Source: a virus
Taxonomy: Duplodnaviria > Caudoviricetes
IMG/VR virus record: IMGVR_UViG_3300017991_000056
Coordinates: 32,001-96,000 of that record
Reading direction: 5' to 3' (one strand)
Length of the DNA: 64,000 nt
The notes beneath the pieces are model-generated. The model was given only the letters and a program-made list of their open reading frames with translations. It did no database searches and was not told the origin of the DNA. Both the position numbers and the translations under genes were made by a program. Shown one piece after another: positions 2,622 to 47,528 of this stretch (positions are counted from its first letter, which is position 1; each line of letters opens with the position of its first letter).

Positions 2622-5600
2622 GTGCTCGTTTACGAAGTAGTCAAGGAGTTCTACCTTGAGCAGATACGACAGACGGTCACTGTCGGGTCTGTAATCTATT
2701 GTGTGGAGAGCGACGGCCGGGCCTATGTCGCCATTGATCCTCCTCCCGTCCCGGACCCTCTTGCCAACTTCGTCGGCGGCATTGAGCTGGGTTGCGAGGG
2801 GGACTGCTTCTGCGAGTGGGTGGCGCGTCCCGACGGCCAAGAGTTTACCGAATACAGGAACACCCTTCCAGACCCGCCTCCAGACGGAGAGGGAGCAACA
2901 GGTCCCCAAGGGCCGCAGGGGAGTGGCGGCGGCCCCACCGGACCTCCAGGCCCCCAGGGTCCTCCGGGTGGCGCCACCGGGCCTGTCGGGCCTCAGGGAT
3001 TGCAGGGAGCCCAAGGCAGCCAGGGCTGGGAGGGCGAGCTTGGCCAACAGGGCTACGTCGGGGACCAGGGGGTTGTCGGCCCCCAGGGCCCGGGGCCGGT
3101 TGGCCCGCAAGGCAATCAGGGATGGCAGGGCGCCGGCCTTCAGGGGCCGGTCGGAGGGCAGGGGTCGCAGGGGCTTGTCGGGTCCGACGGGAGCCAGGGG
3201 AGCGACGGACCCACAGGAGTCGGTCTTCAGGGGCCCATTGGCCATCAGGGCGCAGATGGGTTGCAAGGAAGCGTCGGAGCCCAAGGGCCAGATGGGTTTC
3301 AGGGCTGGCAGGGAGCCGCCGGAGCCGATGGCACTCAGGGTGCCCAGGGCAATCAGGGAACTCGGGGCACCCAGGGCAATCAGGGTGGTCAGGGCGTCCA
3401 GGGCTTCCAGGGCTGGCAGGGCGCCCAGGGTCCGCAGGGCGTTGAGGGTCTTTCGGGCTGGCAGGGACCTTCGGGCAACCAGGGCTTGCAGGGTGTTGGG
3501 GATCGCGGTTTTCAAGGTGATGCCGGAAGCGTTGGCGCGACCGGCGACCAGGGGTCCCAAGGCTATGCCGGGTCGCAGGGGAAGATCGGACTCCAGGGAG
3601 TCGACGGGGCAACGGGTGTCGGGTTCCAAGGTTATGCCGGGGCACAAGGCTTGGATGGTCCGGTTGGGCCGCAGGGGTTTCAGGGCGATGGCCATCAAGG
3701 CCCGCAGGGCTCTCGGGGGCAGACGGGCGCGGACTCGACGGTGCCTGGGCCTCAAGGTTCGATCGGGGTGGGGCTTCAGGGGCCGCAGGGGAGCGCGGGA
3801 GCGACAGGTGTCGGGACGATTGGCGCGCAGGGCTCTCGTGGGCCGCAGGGCTACGATGGGGAGCGCGGCTTCCAGGGCTTGAAGGGTGCCGTCGGCGAAG
3901 ATGGGGTGCAGGGACCGGTTGGGGCTCAGGGCTTCCAGGGCGCTCAGGGCTTTGGCGTTCAAGGTTCGCGTGGTCCTCAGGGCGACACCGGCTTTCAAGG
4001 CACGCAAGGTCAGGGAGCTCAAGGCCCGCAGGGTACTCAGGGTGCCGACTCGGCGACACCGGGTCCGCAGGGGCCTCAGGGTGATGGCTATCAGGGTCCG
4101 CAGGGCTCTCAGGGTTCTGGCGCTGATGGTTCCCAGGGGCCGCAGGGTCCTGAAGGGGTTCAGGGGTCAGAGGGTGACGGTGTCCAGGGCGCCCAGGGCG
4201 TGGTTGGCTCTCAGGGACACCAGGGAGTGGTCGGTTCCGGGACTCAGGGGTTTCAAGGTTCGGACGGAACGGGTCTTCAAGGGGTGGTTGGCCCTCAGGG
4301 AGGCCAGGGGCTCACGGGTATCGGCGTTCAGGGTCCGCAGGGGATCGTCGGACAGGATGGAGTTCAGGGAGGCCAGGGCGAGCAGGGGGCCACCGGAGCC
4401 GAGGGGGTAGGAGTACAAGGGCCTGTTGGTAGCCAAGGGCCTCTTGGCAGTCAGGGTTCGCAGGGAAGTGGGGCTCAGGGCGCTCAGGGTCCGGTTGGCT
4501 TGACAGGGGTCGGAGCACAGGGAGCCGTGGGTCCGCAGGGAACAGGCGGGAGCCAGGGAGTTCCTGGGGTTCAGGGCCCGTTGGGGCCTCGGGGCCTTCA
4601 GGGTGCCCAGGGTCTTGAAGGCGTTCAGGGTTCCGCGGGCGCGACGGGGGTCGGGGTTCAGGGGCCTGTTGGCGTTCAGGGCGTGACGGGAAATCAGGGC
4701 CCGGTTGGCGCCGTTGGCGGTTTCGGGCCGCAGGGCTTGCAGGGATGGCAGGGCAATCAGGGCGTGGCTGGACAGGATGGCTCTCAGGGCGTGGTTGGCT
4801 CTCAGGGTGATCGGGGCTCGACGGGCGTCGGTGTTCAGGGGCCGCAGGGATTGGACGGCCAGGACGGCGTTCAGGGGCCTCAGGGGGCCGCAGGAGACGC
4901 AGGGGCGACCGGGGCTGGGTTCCAGGGTCCGCAGGGCTTGGAGGGCCAGGGCGGGGCACAGGGGGCTCCTGGGACGCAGGGATGGCAGGGTTCCGGTCTT
5001 CAGGGTCCGGTTGGCTTCCAGGGAGTTGTCGGCCAGGACGGGGCTCAGGGCTCGGTTGGCTTCCAGGGCGTTGTCGGAGCCCAGGGCCATCAGGGGGCCA
5101 CCGGTGTCGGGGTGCAGGGCGATTCCGGTATTCAGGGGTCGGATGGCCAGGACGGGGCTCAGGGTGCCCAGGGCGTCGCCGGACAGGACGGATTGCAGGG
5201 GCCGGCTGGCGCTCGGGGCTATCAGGGCGATGTGGGATCGACCGGGGCCGACGGCGTTCAGGGCCCGGCTGGTCCGCAGGGCATCGCCGGCCAGGACGGG
5301 GCCATCGGCTTCCAGGGTGTTCGTGGTTTCCAGGGAGATGTCGGGTCCACGGGAGCCGCCGGGGTCGGCGTTCAGGGCACTCAGGGAATCGAAGGCCAGG
5401 ATGGCGTTCAAGGGGCTCAGGGACCGCAGGGCGAGATCGGCTTGCAGGGTGTTGCCGGGCAGGACGGGTCGCAGGGAGCTCAGGGGCTTGCCGGACAGGA
5501 TGGCGACCAGGGCTTGCAGGGTGTTGCCGGGCACGACGGGAGTGACGGTTCGCAGGGCTCGGCTGGGGTTCAGGGATTTCAGGGTCGAGATGGGCAGGAT

Positions 5601-25318: not shown

Positions 25319-25713
25319 GGGGGCGAAATGGTATCGACTGGCGCGGCTGAGCTTGAGACTGCATGTGGAGGATGACCGTTGGCCTCCTGAATCATCGGTC
25401 GCAGAGACAACTGCAAAAAACATTCTTTCCTTCCCTGGTCGGCCTCGGCTGGCCATCGCTGCCTGAGAAGGCGGCGCGGGTGTCCCTGCCTGACGCCGAT
25501 AGGGGTCGGGGGCAACGACATCGGTGGACAAGCCATGGAGAGACATGCTGACGAGGAGCACGGAAAGACGTCTCTGGCAGCCTGGAAAGACGGGACGGGG
25601 CCTGCCGACGGGGCCTGAGCCGGACTAGACATCCGGCAAGCCTTCGGCTAAGCATGTAGATGTCCGAGGGACGTCCGTTCAGGACCCGGGTTCGACTCCT
25701 GGCGCCTCCACCA
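25319..25713 (+). ncRNA. ssrA: tmRNA; tag peptide (A)AKNILSFPGRPRLAIAA* at 25413-25466
   Basis: 5' GGGGGCG...TCGAC pairs with 3' CGCCTCC-ACCA including G3.U; T-arm GGGTTCGACTCC; tag ends in AA. Confidence 0.93.
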
Positions 25714-25756: not shown

Positions 25757-25833
<77 letters not shown>

Positions 25834-42876: not shown

Positions 42877-43384
42877 ATGAACGCCGAAAGCGCAGACAGG
42901 GCCGCGAAGGCCGTAGGGAAGCAGGATTTGCCGGGGCTGGCGGACGCGGTGATAGATGCCGGCGAGAAGTCGTACCAGGCGAACCTGGAGGCGATCAAGA
43001 GCCTGGTTGTTCTCGGAGACGAGGAGGGCGGAGCGAAGGCCCTCCGGGAGATGACGGATGGAATCGGCCCGTGGGCCAAGGCGTTCGAGGAGGTCGGCAA
43101 GGCGGCCGACGCTGCCGCCAAGACGATCCAGACGGCCCTTCGCGCGACTCCGGACCATGGACTCGGTCAGGAGCCTGGTGGAGGGGAACGCGATCGTCAA
43201 GAAGGCGGCGGAGGGGCTGGAGGCGGCTCGCAGGGAGCTGTTGCGACCTGGGCTGGCGGACGGGCGTCGAGAGGAGCTGCTCGAGGACATGCTGTTCTTC
43301 GCCGAGGCCGCGGGGAAGGCCGCGAAGGGCGCCGTCGGCGACGTGAGGGACCTCGGGAAGCGCGTAGAGGCTTGGATGAAGTAG
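42877..43384 (+). pseudogene. Helical protein gene split by a +1 frameshift near 43135-43141
   Basis: Coding-like translation moves from the 42877 frame to the 43058 frame at GCC CTT C. Confidence 0.5.
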
Positions 43385-43394
43385 GAAAACGACG

Positions 43395-44201
43395 ATGCCT
43401 CTGATAGACACGACAACGCTGCTGAAGATCGCCGACCGGGCGGCCGCGCAGTACAGGTACATCAATGACGCCTTCGCCCAGCTGAGCCAGGAGGGCGGGA
43501 GCTACTACTTCGACCTGGTCTCCCTGACGAACGATCCGGATGTGGAGATACCGTGCGACAGAAACTACCAGCTCGTCGATGACACGCTGGTCGACGAGGG
43601 AGCTCCCTTCGCCGCCCACCACGGGACGAGGATGGCGAACATCATCGGGTCCATGGAGGCCCATTTCAACAGGACGGACAACACCGGGACCGTGCTCCAG
43701 GCGGGTGGATGGGACGGCTACCTGACCGACCATGACGAGAGGGTGAGCTGGTGGTTCGCCGCCCTCTTCTACGCCGTCAAGTCGTACCGGATGCTGGCGA
43801 ACGACGTCTTCAGCGAGACCGACGACGTCTTCGCCACCCTGGAGATGCTGGCGGGTCCGACCCTGGACTTCACCGACGGGGTGAACTACGGGAACGGGAG
43901 CCAGCTCAATCCGGCGGACGGGAGCGACTACGCGGCGACGCAGCTCAAGGTCGTGGTTGACACCTTCGGGGCCTCCGACCTGGACATAAGGCTGGGCGTG
44001 AAGGACGTGGACGACCTTCCGACCACGATAGACGTGACGGTGCCGGGCGGCTCCGCGCCGGGAGCCGAAATCCCGGTCGGCGCGACGTCCAACAGGTTCC
44101 TGGACGTGATCGGGGCCTCCCTGATCCCGTTTGGGAGCTTCGGCACGCTCGGTGACAAGGTGACGGTCAACAACCTCAAGGAAAGACAGGTCTCCCTGTA
44201 G
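43395..44201 (+). CDS. Putative tail structural protein
   Basis: Acidic, strong codon bias, in tail operon. Confidence 0.7.
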   Translation: MPLIDTTTLLKIADRAAAQYRYINDAFAQLSQEGGSYYFDLVSLTNDPDVEIPCDRNYQLVDDTLVDEGAPFAAHHGTRMANIIGSMEAHFNRTDNTGTVLQAGGWDGYLTDHDERVSWWFAALFYAVKSYRMLANDVFSETDDVFATLEMLAGPTLDFTDGVNYGNGSQLNPADGSDYAATQLKVVVDTFGASDLDIRLGVKDVDDLPTTIDVTVPGGSAPGAEIPVGATSNRFLDVIGASLIPFGSFGTLGDKVTVNNLKERQVSL

Positions 44202-44225
44202 GGGGCTGAAAAGGAGGATAGTGTC

Positions 44226-44489
44226 ATGGGTATGGGTCGCAAGCGCATAGCATGAGAGCTTCTCCGTGTGGTCCGCGAACTCGTAGGCAAGGACCTTGAG
44301 GTCAACAAGCTGAACAAGATAGAGACGCAGGTTCGCGTCGATGGAAAGCTCAAATACACGATCACGAAGGCCACCTACAGTCGTCCTGTGTATTACGATG
44401 TGACAGGGCTCGGCCCACGGGGAACGGTTCGGCAGTACAGTACCTACAAGGGTGCATTGAAAGCGATAGAGAAGGCTGAAGGGGTCTAG
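44226..44489 (+). pseudogene. Helix-tagged small gene with in-frame TGA at 44253 (MGMGRKRIA*ELLRVVRELVG...)
   Basis: RBS and ATG in frame with ORF 44268..44489; stop falls on the tag's Arg/Ser position. Confidence 0.65.
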
Positions 44490-44492
44490 CGA

Positions 44493-45260
44493 GTGTTGAC
44501 CATCGGACAATTTGCTGAGCGCTCGGGTGTGCCGTATCACACCTTGAGGCGCCTTCAGGCAAGCGGCAAGCTGATGCCGTTGGTCGTTACTGATGGTGGT
44601 CATCGTCGCTATGAAGAGTGGCAGCTCGACGAGGCTGACAAGTACGTTCGACGCATGAAGTTGTTGCCGGGCGAGAGTGCGATCGGAAGTGAGCATCTGG
44701 AGCCCTTCTTCGCCTACTTGCTCGGCTTGGTTCTGGCTGACGGTACGATGTCCGACAGCGGTCAGGTTCAGATCGAGATGAAAGATGGAGCCTTCCTGCG
44801 AGAGGTCGGCAGGCATTTGAGTGCGGACGTCCATCCACGCAAGGGGCGTCCGATGTGGCAGATGACGGTGCCAGTGGCAGTCGCAAATAGGCTTTCTGAA
44901 TATAGAGTCTGCCCTCGGAAGGGAAAGACCGGCTTCGACATCCCATCGATGTCGAGAGTGTCATTCGGTCACTTCATTCGGGGGTTGTTTGACGGAGACG
45001 GAAGCGTCCATGTTGTATCGGAGTCGCGAGTGCGGCTCAGGTTTCATGGGCATTCGAGGCCGATGGGATGCTTGCAGAACACTTTCATGACAGAGTTCGG
45101 CTGGTATTTTCCATGGGTGAGAGATAAGAGAACTGCCGCAAGTGGGCAACTTGAGACGGGGAGGCATTCTGTCGTCTCCGGGCTTGGTGACCTCATGTAC
45201 TCCGCTGGCGGTGTGTGTCTGGCTCGAAAGAAGGACAAACTCATCCGAGAAGGAGGATAG
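44493..45260 (+). CDS. Free-standing LAGLIDADG homing endonuclease with N-terminal MerR-type HTH
   Basis: LTIGQFAERSGV...GGHRRY; YLLGLVLADG and FIRGLFDGDG. Confidence 0.9.
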   Translation: MLTIGQFAERSGVPYHTLRRLQASGKLMPLVVTDGGHRRYEEWQLDEADKYVRRMKLLPGESAIGSEHLEPFFAYLLGLVLADGTMSDSGQVQIEMKDGAFLREVGRHLSADVHPRKGRPMWQMTVPVAVANRLSEYRVCPRKGKTGFDIPSMSRVSFGHFIRGLFDGDGSVHVVSESRVRLRFHGHSRPMGCLQNTFMTEFGWYFPWVRDKRTAASGQLETGRHSVVSGLGDLMYSAGGVCLARKKDKLIREGG

Positions 45261-45264
45261 TGTC

Positions 45265-46625
45265 ATGGGTATGGGTTAGATTTTGACCCATCTCACCCTG
45301 TCTAATTGACTTGGAAGCCCAGAGGTGGGCGACAAGGCGGAAGCAAGGCAGTCACTAGCCTGGGCGCCGTGAACGACTGAGCGACAGGGACCATCAGACA
45401 GCGAAACGCTACCCGGCGGTTGCTGATGGTATGCGACAGTCTGGACTCCCCTATAACCGTACTGAAGGGGGAGAGGGTTGGCCGAAGAGCCGATCCCGCC
45501 ATCGAAAGATGGTTAGTAGGCGCAAGCCGAAAGTAACAGATCGATCAGGCATTTGCTCGCTTCTACAAGACTGGGCCAGCAACCGATCCGCTGCTCGTCC
45601 TCGCGACGGGTGCCGGCGTCAACCTCGTCCTGGAGCCGATCTACTCCACCTCCGTATGGGGCGCGGGCTGGTACAACGCTGCGTCGTCCGCGCATTACGC
45701 CGACAGCGCGATCCGGTTCGAGGGCAACATCGACTTCGAGCTCCAGGGCTCGGACGACATCTGGGATCTTCTCGGGAACTGGATCGTCAACGAGAGGGCC
45801 TATCCGAAGTCCATGGACATCTCGCCGGACGGCGCGAGGGTCTACGAGTACCACACGACCGGCGTCTATGGCGCCAACTTCGACCTGAACGGCATGTGGA
45901 ACACGAGCGCGGGCTTCTCCACGAGCCAGGGGTCGTTCGTGACGGTGAGCGCGGGGGCCATCGCCCTGGACAGGGACGAGGTGGACCCGGCCGGGGGCAC
46001 GGACTTCGGGGACTACTCCTACATCGACCAGAAGGAGGGCGTCGTCGCCGACGACTGCACCGAGCTGGCGGAAACGAACCCGCTGAACCCGAGCGGCAAC
46101 AATGTCGACCCCCTCCCGTTCTGGAGGACGGACGCGCAGCTGCTCACGGGCGTTTACTCGGCGCCCTTCACGGGGGGCGCCGTCCCGCAGGCCGACACGG
46201 AGACGGTGGAGTGGAGCGTGGACGTGACCCAGAACCACGTGGTTCTCTACACCTGCAACGGCAGCCGTCTCGCGACGGCGCTCCTTCAGGGGGCCATCGA
46301 CGCGACGGGCTCCGTCACGCTCTACAACGAGGATGGCGTCTTCGACCCGATTCTCGGGCCGGCGCACACGGGAAGCCTCACGGCTCCGTACCTCTACGCC
46401 GAGAACACCTGGTTCCGGGTGAGCATCCCGCGCGGAGCGGACCCGACGGTCTACATCGAGCTGCCGGCGGTCGTGGTGGAGTCTGACGACTACAGCATTC
46501 CGGGTCAGTCGGACGTCTCCTATCGGACGTTCGGGATCAAGGGCCTCGGCGGCCGCTGCAACAGCGCGGTCACGATGCCTCCGATGATCATGTCCGACAG
46601 CGCCGGCCTGTTCGTCGCTCCGTAA
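45265..46625 (+). CDS. Tail tube-like protein 1, spliced: join(45265..45277,45544..46625), 364 aa, MGMGYQAFARFYK...
   Basis: Intron removal restores the frame; N-terminus matches paralogue MGIGYEGWAKL. Confidence 0.8.
45278..45543 (+). ncRNA. Group I self-splicing intron (266 nt, no ORF)
   Basis: P1 ATGGGTT/GACCCAT with U.G at 5' splice site; P3 CCCTGTC/GACAGGG; P7 GACTG/CAGTC; P8 ACCATCAG/CTGATGGT; terminal G. Confidence 0.9.
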
Positions 46626-46640
46626 CATGAGGGTGCCGGC

Positions 46641-47528
46641 ATGGGAATCGGCTACGAGGGCTGGGCGAAGCTGAAGGTCGACGCGGTCGAGGACCTGTTC
46701 CTCTGCACCGGGGCGGCCAACCCGAAGCGCCGCGTCCGTCTCGAGTCGTCGTCGGGTTACGGCGGCCAGATCAAGCTCCCCGTCGACGAGATCGGCATAG
46801 GGACTCCCAGGAACTACGACTGGGAGTCCTTCGACGGCTCCCTGGGCTTCGACGTCACCCAGGACCTGGTCACCAATCAGATCAAGCCGTGGATATTCGC
46901 CCGCCAGAAGGCGGCCCAGACCACGATGAGGACCAGGAAGGACAACGTCCAGCAGTTCGACAACTGCTACTGGAACAACATCAGCCTGACGGCTGGCGAC
47001 GGCTCCCTGGTGACGGGGTCCATAGGCTACGTGGCGATCCAGAGGGACTCCTACGTTCAGGGCGGCGACTACGTCGACGACAAGACGGGCGACGGGTACC
47101 TTTGCGATCCCGGCGTCCTGAACGTGCCGGAGCCGCTGGGGATAGACATGAACGAGTCCCCGATCCCGTTCTGGAACAGCTCGGTGGAGGTGGACGGCGA
47201 CGTCCTGGACTTCGTGACGTGGACGCTTGACTTCTCGCAGGAAGTGGTCAAGTTCTTCTCGTGCGAGGCGAGCTCGGTCCCGGCCGAGCCGAGGTTCATA
47301 GCGGTGGGTCCCATGACGGTGACGTTCACGGGGGACTACTTCTTTGCCGCGACGACGCCGACGCCGTGGGACATCCCGGACACCTTGGCGACCTTGACAG
47401 TGAACATAGCCGGGGAGACTATCGATTTGGCGAACCTTGAGCTTTCGACGGACGCCGACGACGTGAGGGGCCAGAACGACCCGACCGTCATTGCCGTCGA
47501 CTACGCCGCGTACGAGCTGGTGGCGTGA
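46641..47528 (+). CDS. Tail tube-like protein 2
   Basis: MGIGYEG start; DGSLGFDVT, WTLDFSQ motifs shared with tubes 1 and 3. Confidence 0.65.
   Translation: MGIGYEGWAKLKVDAVEDLFLCTGAANPKRRVRLESSSGYGGQIKLPVDEIGIGTPRNYDWESFDGSLGFDVTQDLVTNQIKPWIFARQKAAQTTMRTRKDNVQQFDNCYWNNISLTAGDGSLVTGSIGYVAIQRDSYVQGGDYVDDKTGDGYLCDPGVLNVPEPLGIDMNESPIPFWNSSVEVDGDVLDFVTWTLDFSQEVVKFFSCEASSVPAEPRFIAVGPMTVTFTGDYFFAATTPTPWDIPDTLATLTVNIAGETIDLANLELSTDADDVRGQNDPTVIAVDYAAYELVA

Follow-up and report, generated by a model that had tools for sequence, protein, structure and literature searches.

Results

Layout of the locus

We analysed the start region of a gene for a putative tail tube protein in a 64,000-nt stretch of DNA from a tailed phage (Caudoviricetes; positions 32,001 to 96,000 of the IMG/VR record IMGVR_UViG_3300017991_000056). 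This stretch is called the window below; coordinates are given within it, and all features of the locus are on the plus strand. A direct repeat encloses a small passenger open reading frame (ORF) and a gene for a free-standing homing endonuclease, and the second copy of the repeat is followed by a candidate group I intron without an ORF of its own, behind which the tube gene continues.

The two copies of the repeat (44211..44237 and 45250..45276) are identical over 27 bp, or match over 30 nt if one mismatch is allowed, and the sequence has no third occurrence in the window. Two matches to it were seen in none of 100 dinucleotide-preserving shuffles, and in the entire 133,403-nt record the only ATGGGNATGGGN sites are those of the two copies. 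Each copy consists of a Shine-Dalgarno box, an 8-nt spacer and the codons ATG GGT ATG GGT. Copy 1, with its ATG at 44226, has the original Shine-Dalgarno box, spacer and first four codons of the tube gene and now heads the passenger ORF. Copy 2 is the working Shine-Dalgarno box and start of the tube gene. It reads ATGGGTATGGGT-TAG (ATG GGT ATG GGT TAG), and after it the tube frame is closed until 45537, with the first ATG of the reopened frame at 45813. Copy 2 is usable as a tube start because a 266-nt intron comes after it.

The region had been described before, from the letters and ORFs alone, as an endonuclease and a tagged cargo gene bounded by a duplication of the ribosome-binding site (RBS) and first codons of the tube gene (the original prediction below). 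The repeat, the two genes between its copies and the position of the endonuclease stop codon inside copy 2 agree with that description, and a duplication of this kind recurs in relatives. The intron was overlooked, and with it the fact that copy 2 does not by itself restore the tube start, since a stop codon follows at once.

The endonuclease gene (44493..45260, 255 aa) is intact. Its GTG start lies 3 nt past the passenger stop, and its TAG stop (45258-45260) is 4 nt before the tube ATG. The product has an N-terminal MerR-type helix-turn-helix (HTH) domain and a two-motif LAGLIDADG core. Both are above the Pfam cut-offs (MerR 37.7 bits, cut-off 28.2; LAGLIDADG_3 32.8 bits, cut-off 22.5), and the protein matches the endonuclease family phrog_4645. 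In the Protein Data Bank (PDB) it matches a putative homing endonuclease (2dch_X, 2e-6), and its residues 2-60 match MerR HTH domains. The residues A82-D83-G84 and D167-G168-D169-G170 are invariant in all 18 sequences of the family, and all 38 family-invariant residues are retained. The same sequence, without a single difference, is found in contigs of runs X2 and X4. The similarity to MerR is confined to the HTH (residues 1-48), the remainder being the LAGLIDADG core. A role as a MerR-family transcription regulator was considered and rejected, there being no match to the dimerisation helix or the effector domain; the HTH is best explained as an additional module for DNA binding.

The cassette between the repeat copies (44238..45249) has a GC content of 0.558 and a third-position GC content (GC3) of 0.65, compared with 0.637 for the genome and a GC3 of 0.90-0.93 for the neighbouring genes. 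It is therefore foreign DNA.

The intron

The candidate intron occupies 45278..45543 (266 nt, terminal G at 45543), as delimited by its fold, covariation and junctions. Exon 1 of the tube gene is only 13 nt long (45265..45277, four codons and the first base of codon 5), and its last 7 nt form the P1 helix with 45284-45290. Exon 2 is 45544..46625, and the spliced gene would encode a putative tail tube protein of about 364 aa. U45277 pairs with G45284 in a U.G wobble, followed by at least five Watson-Crick pairs of P1. The junction with exon 1 ending at U45277, the intron ending at G45543 and exon 2 starting at 45544 is the only one that yields the N-terminus of the family, MGMGYQ. A script looking for the U.G wobble, five Watson-Crick pairs in P1, a terminal G and a restored MGMGY[QM][GA][FY] motif found a unique solution in each of the nine tube introns. 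The structure and the junctions suggest that the intron is self-splicing.

The 266-nt stretch folds better than all of 200 shuffles (z = -3.6), and in this fold the end of copy 2 is paired with 45284-45290. The helices are P1 (45272-78/45284-90), P3 (45296-302/45383-89), P4 (45310-13/45333-36), P5 (45317-21/45326-30), P6 (45337-40/45367-70), P7 (45373-79/45437-42, in a pseudoknot with P3), P8 (45390-94/45426-30), P9 (45446-52/45467-73), P9.1 (45475-82/45489-96) and P9.2 (45498-503/45508-13); their names were assigned from the helix order and the class from the topology. In an alignment of ten introns (the window, eight tube-gene loci and the phage MW202674) RNAalifold gives compensatory changes in 35 of 61 pairs. 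In a second count the helices were placed in group I order with P7 as a pseudoknot, giving 62 pairs in 11 helices. Here 96.9% of cells are paired, as opposed to 81.0% in shuffles, none of 500 of which reached the former value, and pairing falls to 39-45% once the helix partners are slid relative to each other. Both sides have changed in 34 of these 62 pairs. P3 has compensatory changes in six of its seven pairs; P7 is paired in all ten sequences, with one covarying pair. Weak Rfam hits to P18 and SMCR2_2 were judged to be chance.

One out-of-frame ORF starts inside the intron and continues into exon 2; of the other plus-strand ORFs that start there, the longest has 38 aa. Among 50,697 phage records, the 4.3-kb region had a single blastn match, the intron itself, in MW202674. 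There the homologue lies between two coding sequences (CDS), both annotated as P22 coat protein, the second of which covers Pfam profile positions 89-420 of 423. A homologous intron splits the coat gene of this unrelated phage. The MW202674 genome (L001) is podovirus-like and 36.6 kb long; the intron-family member is at about 2990-3206 in the P22-type coat gene, an endonuclease gene is absent nearby, and a 39-aa hypothetical protein is annotated inside the intron.

The tube introns are inserted in two phases 1 nt apart, and the wobble pair shifts along with the phase. In the window, L009, L017, L062 and L065 the gene is interrupted behind its base 13; L006, L013, L064 and L066 have the intron one base earlier, behind base 12. 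These are two intron lineages at one codon boundary, and the same endonuclease family occurs with both. In a separate observation, short contigs from all four runs match the window intron only at 45301-45343 (P4-P5), with 5-6 differences, and then diverge; the family probably has additional members in the same habitats.

The N-terminus of the tube protein

The tube protein of the window scores 21.3 bits against Phage_tube_2 (PF18906; cut-off 27), and several homologues at 70-82% identity carry PF18906 by precomputed annotation. There are 219 homologues at E <= 0.001. Among the 120 listed, 98 have an N-terminus M(GM)GYQ, MYQ or similar, and in 77 of these 98 it is MGMGY. Judged by these homologues, the MGMG sequence that the original prediction took for a tag on the cargo is the conserved N-terminus of the tube protein family. 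The other 22 listed homologues have shortened or odd N-termini, some of which may hide introns; the N-terminal extensions of P0033 and P0066 resemble intron read-through. The recorded call for the tube gene of the window (P0014, 270 aa, 45813-46625) starts 90 codons late, because the intron hides exon 1. Exon 2 of this record differs from the contigs of runs X2 and X4 at two positions, 45767 T>C and 46109 C>T.

Related loci

Sixteen loci were selected through the tube protein alone. Twelve of them are empty, with the upstream gene and the RBS in place and no interruption of the ATGGGNATGGGNTAY start; two contain the intron only (L006 and L009); two contain the intron and an upstream LAGLIDADG ORF (L017 and L013); none has an endonuclease without the intron. 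The original prediction had proposed a comparison with related genomes for an empty allele, and such alleles exist. Four more loci (L062, L064, L065, L066) were added through the endonuclease profile. The intron is immediately 3' of the endonuclease gene in all six loci that have this endonuclease family and whose DNA is in hand, and an endonuclease alone is seen in none of 22 loci. This pattern is as expected for a free-standing homing endonuclease combined with an ORF-less intron. L009 has a second ATGGGNATGGGN match at 3343, within the upstream gene, which was put down to chance.

The closest relative of the window locus is L062. The flanking genes of the two are 86-88% identical, whereas the endonucleases are 64% and the introns 73% identical.

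Direct evidence of an adjoining tube start is available for 12 of 17 endonuclease homologues, and none was seen elsewhere. This ties the family to a single site, the tube gene start, and not to late operons in general, into which the original prediction had it mobilise cargo. The profile scan of viral contigs gave 42 loci, of which only L020, on the same contig as L017, is close; in the metagenome scan, only L062-L066 are close among the best 80 of 231 relatives. The other 41 viral and 75 metagenome loci have 22-37% identity, belong to other LAGLIDADG families and are outside the locus counts. A single-sequence scan of viral contigs with the endonuclease gave nothing but L019, an unrelated HTH match.

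L013 (3032-3712) and L017 (2947-3762) have near-identical upstream genes and different endonuclease families at one place. The first 11 codons of the L013 ORF are of the L017 type and are followed by a LAGLIDADG_2 sequence, so that the recombination joint is inside the endonuclease gene.

Duplication of the tube start in relatives

In L064 a perfect 25-nt repeat of the locus's own RBS, spacer and start surrounds the endonuclease gene. L062 contains three copies of the start, A, B and C. Copy A is fused in frame to an endonuclease gene that is interrupted by a TAA in its frame. Behind copy B come about 95 nt from the 5' end of an intron, then a second endonuclease gene, and then copy C with the complete intron. 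The second enzyme is of the LAGLIDADG_2 type, is 47% identical to the L013 ORF and has no similarity to the first type. The partial intron copy in this region of L062 (1341-2439) begins with P1, breaks off where J6/7 starts, and has a P6 resembling that of the window; the complete intron has a different P6. Since the splice-site U is retained in copy B as well as in copy C, splicing may already remove the second endonuclease gene of L062, in which case the arrangement would be a natural intermediate towards an intron-encoded endonuclease.

Of the 17 homologous endonucleases, six have an MGMG start, seven have a C-terminal read-through of a second tube start, and three have both. The MGMG fusion is present in 9 of 20 known loci (the window, L062, L064 and six proteins). 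In L017 and L065 there is no duplication, and the endonuclease gene starts at or just past the stop of the upstream gene.

In all three duplicated loci for which DNA is available, the copies cease to be identical one base short of the 5' splice site, which means that copy 1 never has the splice-site U. The base after copy 1 is C in the window and A in L062, and L064 has GGA instead of GGT. In the window the C would give a C-G pair in place of the U.G wobble, and copy 1 was judged not to be a competent 5' splice site. A left junction 1 nt before the splice site is what would be expected if copy 1 is the recipient end at a break at the intron insertion site.

The copies are identical to each other over 27 nt in the window and over 25 nt in L064; those of L062 differ from each other. 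The endonuclease tree is poorly resolved: the MGMG state changes five times on the maximum-likelihood tree, and only two of the changes are forced by starred branches. Identity of the copies within a locus as against their difference in L062, together with the weak tree, leaves two options, namely repeated one-sided repair and a single origin with losses.

The passenger ORF

The passenger ORF (44226..44489) is in frame with the ATG of copy 1 and has 87 codons where it is open. In this record a TGA at 44253-44255 leaves a 9-codon peptide from copy 1, and the ORF caller starts the passenger at a GTG at 44268 (ORF73, 73 aa). The nonsense base, T at 44253, is specific to this strain. Contigs of runs X2 and X4, from two other studies, contain a near-identical phage with C at this position (CGA), and there the ORF is open from the copy 1 ATG to the TAG at 44489; runs X6 and X7 gave short pieces only, and none of the runs listed for this DNA is recorded as RNA. 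That copy 1 supplies the start of the cargo gene is thus correct as to frame and for the sister strains, but not for the record in which it was predicted. Recoding of the TGA was considered and rejected: TGA ends 57 of the 122 ORFs with GC3 >= 0.78, and the sister assemblies have CGA.

The passenger has homologues in only two clusters among 1.84 billion representatives, with Q or K at the position of the TGA. Comparison with the N-termini of these homologues shows that MGMG replaces the first 2-3 passenger codons in frame, and the in-frame fusion implied by the term "tagged" therefore exists, with a cargo that is broken in this record. If the passenger start codon is laid on the second ATG of the tube gene, the passenger becomes collinear with its homologue P0141, which hints that it was joined via the 6-nt microhomology ATGGGT. 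The predicted fold is alpha-beta5-alpha, with a predicted local distance difference test score of 75.6, and its matches in BFVD are uncharacterised small phage proteins only. No PDB fold match was found at E <= 0.001, no relative was found in viral contigs, and the atlas matches of the passenger are all below 0.9 and without a family.

By tblastn the passenger was found in none of the 20 related loci, including none of the other five DNA loci with this endonuclease family. It is therefore no regular part of the element and is lineage-specific. A linkage of cargo and endonuclease, central to the original prediction, is not upheld: the two vary independently, an outcome that had been named in advance as contrary to it.

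Genomic context

The upstream gene (43395..44201, 268 aa, GC3 0.90, from the ORF list) has no Pfam or PHROG match and belongs to no family. It is conserved directly ahead of the tube gene in all relatives; tblastn places it there in all 16 tube-selected loci and in L062, L064 and L065. The next gene downstream (46641..47528, also from the ORF list) is a distant paralogue of the tube protein; in L066 and L064 the tube query, run with tblastn, also matches the gene directly 3' of the tube gene, at 25-28% identity. The locus is within a plus-strand virion operon that continues, beyond the tube paralogue, with a match to a minor tail protein and a 1574-aa tape-measure-like gene. No terminator-like site was found on the plus strand in 43300-46700. 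Completeness of the virus record is rated at 39%, and a contig of 298,395 nt contains the tube ORF of the window itself; the phage is therefore probably very large. Elsewhere in the window there is a full-length tmRNA (25319-25713; 107 bits, E 7e-41), followed 44 nt further by a tRNA (25757-25830) whose anticodon is CCU as aligned, which would make it a tRNA for arginine.

Discussion

Proposed mechanism

The locus is probably a case of collaborative homing, in which a free-standing endonuclease and an ORF-less intron would spread together, and the duplication would be a scar of one-sided repair that is used for expression. One late transcript would run through the whole locus. Copy 1 would direct translation of the MGMG-passenger fusion, open in sister strains and stopped here; the endonuclease would probably be translated by coupling to the passenger stop; and copy 2 would start the tube protein after the intron has been spliced out. 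The endonuclease is predicted to cut intron-less tube alleles of co-infecting relatives within the conserved sequence coding for MGMGYQGF, at or beside the intron site, and the phage's own tube gene would be immune because the intron interrupts the cut site. Repair of the break would copy the intron and the endonuclease gene along with it (collaborative, or trans, homing), with the upstream gene as the left-hand homology.

The duplication would most likely have arisen when such repair was one-sided. The right end would have been joined via tube homology, and the left end of the recipient, consisting of its own RBS and the MGMG codons up to the break, would have been joined illegitimately, probably through microhomology, to donor DNA upstream of the endonuclease gene. 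The scar may have been kept for its strong late translation start, for placing the selfish genes exactly at the break site, and for the indispensability of copy 2 in tube expression and in P1. One-sided joins are also seen elsewhere in this set, where L013 has a different LAGLIDADG sequence after codon 11 and the second gene of L062 is joined inside the intron after the partial copy.

Several observations weigh against this reading. Two of the five loci with a visible upstream side, L017 and L065, have no duplication, which is therefore not required. A foreign donor should leave differences between the copies, as in L062, so that the identity seen in the window needs a donor from the same population, a recent event or gene conversion, and one ancient duplication with later losses is likewise compatible with the tree. 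The Rfam model Intron_gpI gave no match, whether at the gathering score for the window or at E <= 10 for 44150-45700 (1.55 kb); the intron class follows from our own structure assignment. The Rfam group I model misses many phage introns. The endonuclease could cut at another place, the passenger ORF is broken in this record, and for this phage we found neither a contig lacking the cassette nor one joining across it.

Alternative explanations

The explanation closest to the original prediction is that the endonuclease cassette is a self-contained mobile unit that duplicates the RBS and first codons of late genes and carries tagged cargo, the intron having no role. The perfection of the repeat, the in-frame passenger behind copy 1, the recurrence of the duplication in relatives and the existence of empty alleles would all fit. 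We nevertheless regard it as very improbable: the TAG after copy 2 makes the tube start dependent on the intron, the intron accompanies the endonuclease family in six loci of six, the family has been seen solely at the tube start (directly for 12 of 17 homologues), and the passenger recurs in none of the 20 related loci. LAGLIDADG enzymes leave 4-nt overhangs, and these do not yield a 27-bp target duplication. Still less credible is that 44238-45543 is one composite intron with its 5' splice site at copy 1, the ORFs in a giant P1 loop and copy 2 as a decoy or alternative site. ORFs fused in frame to the upstream exon do occur in organellar group I introns, copy 1 can form seven Watson-Crick pairs with the guide 45284-45290, and in L062, where copies B and C both have the splice-site U, the second endonuclease gene may be spliced out. 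On the other hand, all nine tube introns have the U.G wobble, whereas the C after copy 1 of the window gives a C-G pair and the first copies of L062 (A) and L064 (GGA) likewise lack the wobble. The full Shine-Dalgarno box at copy 2 would be needed only if splicing starts there, and L017 and L065 have no copy 1 at all.

One possibility, which we consider unlikely although the least so of these alternatives, is that the duplicated start arose once, in the ancestor of the endonuclease family, and was adaptive in putting the endonuclease gene exactly at the break and under the strong start of the target gene; L017 and L065 would then be secondary deletions. The fusion is frequent (9 of 20 known loci) and in frame in every case seen, the starred branches force only two changes, and the left end of a recipient would be homologous to the donor right up to the cut. 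However, the in-frame count is biased, as proteins were recognised by their MGMG start, and the junctions differ, MGMG being followed by IGQF, IKIGEF, ASMKIGEF, LSIGSF, ITxF or the passenger ORF. Moreover, the copies in the window and in L064 are identical within the locus, yet have different lineage-specific spacers, and the L062 copies differ from each other; an ancient duplicate should have diverged. It is more doubtful again that the cassette is a frozen relic, a neutral leftover of an endonuclease that no longer homes, with the intron alone of importance. The nonsense codon in the passenger, the in-frame TAA in the first L062 endonuclease gene and the fact that no cassette-less variant of this phage was seen would agree with decay; the endonuclease ORF, on the contrary, is intact, with all 38 listed invariant residues and no difference in two other assemblies, and presence and absence among relatives are patchy, as expected of an active element.

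Comparison with known systems

Collaborative homing of a free-standing endonuclease and an intron was described for F-CphI and the ORF-less group I intron in psbA of cyanophage S-PM2 (Zeng, Bonocora and Shub 2009; available part of PMC3984707). As there, a free-standing endonuclease gene adjoins its presumed target gene, the intron would immunise its carrier, and both would be copied into cut alleles. F-CphI is of the Endo VII type, whereas the enzyme here is a LAGLIDADG protein with a MerR HTH. The target here is a virion gene, interrupted 13 nt after the ATG; the endonuclease gene is upstream, between two copies of the target start, and in relatives is often fused in frame to the first four codons; there is a passenger ORF; and cleavage at the intron site is a prediction here.

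In trans homing in T4, MobE mobilises the nrdB intron with its defunct I-TevIII (Wilson and Edgell 2009, PMC2790892; PMC2988022; both in the parts available). As proposed here, a free-standing endonuclease gene located between genes next door brings about the inheritance of both itself and the group I intron beside it, and a promoter-less cassette depends on upstream transcription and overlaps or is coupled to the upstream ORF, as in L017. MobE, unlike the enzyme here, is an HNH nicking enzyme, the T4 intron has a dead endonuclease ORF, and a duplication of the target start is absent from the available part of the T4 account.

One-sided homing of T4 introns gave illegitimate junctions at microhomologies (Parker, Belisle and Belfort 1999, via PMC2988022) and, in the part of PMC2988022 at hand, was proposed as a route of introns and endonucleases to new sites. 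The duplications described here would likewise have homology on one side only and the other junction at a microhomology, the latter being presumed for our loci. Unlike the products of the T4 laboratory system, the natural ones seem to have become fixed in populations of phages, and the recipient end that was kept would have gained a role as a translation start of selfish genes.

The gene mobA and the translational bypass of gene 60 in T4, according to what Bonocora et al. are said to have reported in 2011, form a mobile cassette. There, as here, a second element keeps an interrupted essential gene working and protects the carrier; the devices here would be a self-splicing intron and a duplicated translation start, not a ribosomal bypass and a split protein. 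Bonocora and Shub reportedly wrote in 2009 of a "likely pathway for formation of mobile group I introns". The second LAGLIDADG gene of L062, with a partial intron copy on one side and the complete intron on the other, resembles the intermediate predicted for mobile introns, whereas the endonuclease gene of the window is still outside the intron. The mobA insertion is covered in the available part of PMC2988022, and the invasion of introns by endonuclease genes (Loizos et al., I-TevII and sunY) in that of PMC3984707, which contains the same phrase on a "likely pathway for formation of mobile group I introns".

The locus has those features of collaborative homing that are accessible to computational tests. 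Keyword searching of the open-access literature, and this only, found no account of a homing endonuclease gene flanked by duplicated translation starts. Those searches and the available review text likewise lacked the combination seen here: duplicate copies of the target start around an endonuclease gene, selfish genes fused in frame to the first codons of the target, a passenger ORF, and an exchange of two endonuclease families at one site.

Implications

Gene callers annotate these tube genes as N-terminally truncated. Collaborative homing has been proposed as a step before the endonuclease enters the intron, and the proposal rests on two phage systems (PMC3984707, PMC2988022, as far as available). 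The locus family would make a third system, located in a virion gene of large phages that have not been cultivated. It also offers a set of natural intermediates: sites that are empty, sites with just the intron, an endonuclease gene next to the intron or enclosed by duplicated starts, two unrelated endonuclease families that replace each other at the same place, and, in one locus, an endonuclease gene between a partial and a full intron copy.

A broader idea, about which we have more doubt than belief, is that duplication of the start region is a regular third way, beside introns and inteins, for an endonuclease gene to occupy its own cleavage site in an essential gene. If so, selfish genes would be expressed as in-frame fusions from the strongest late start and could take passengers, while the donor copy restarts the target gene. 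The loci would then be successive stages in the birth of a mobile intron, from no duplication, through duplication, to an endonuclease between partial and full intron copies. At the level of the single locus, the arrangement suggests how selfish genes may borrow the start signal of their target gene and carry passengers with them.

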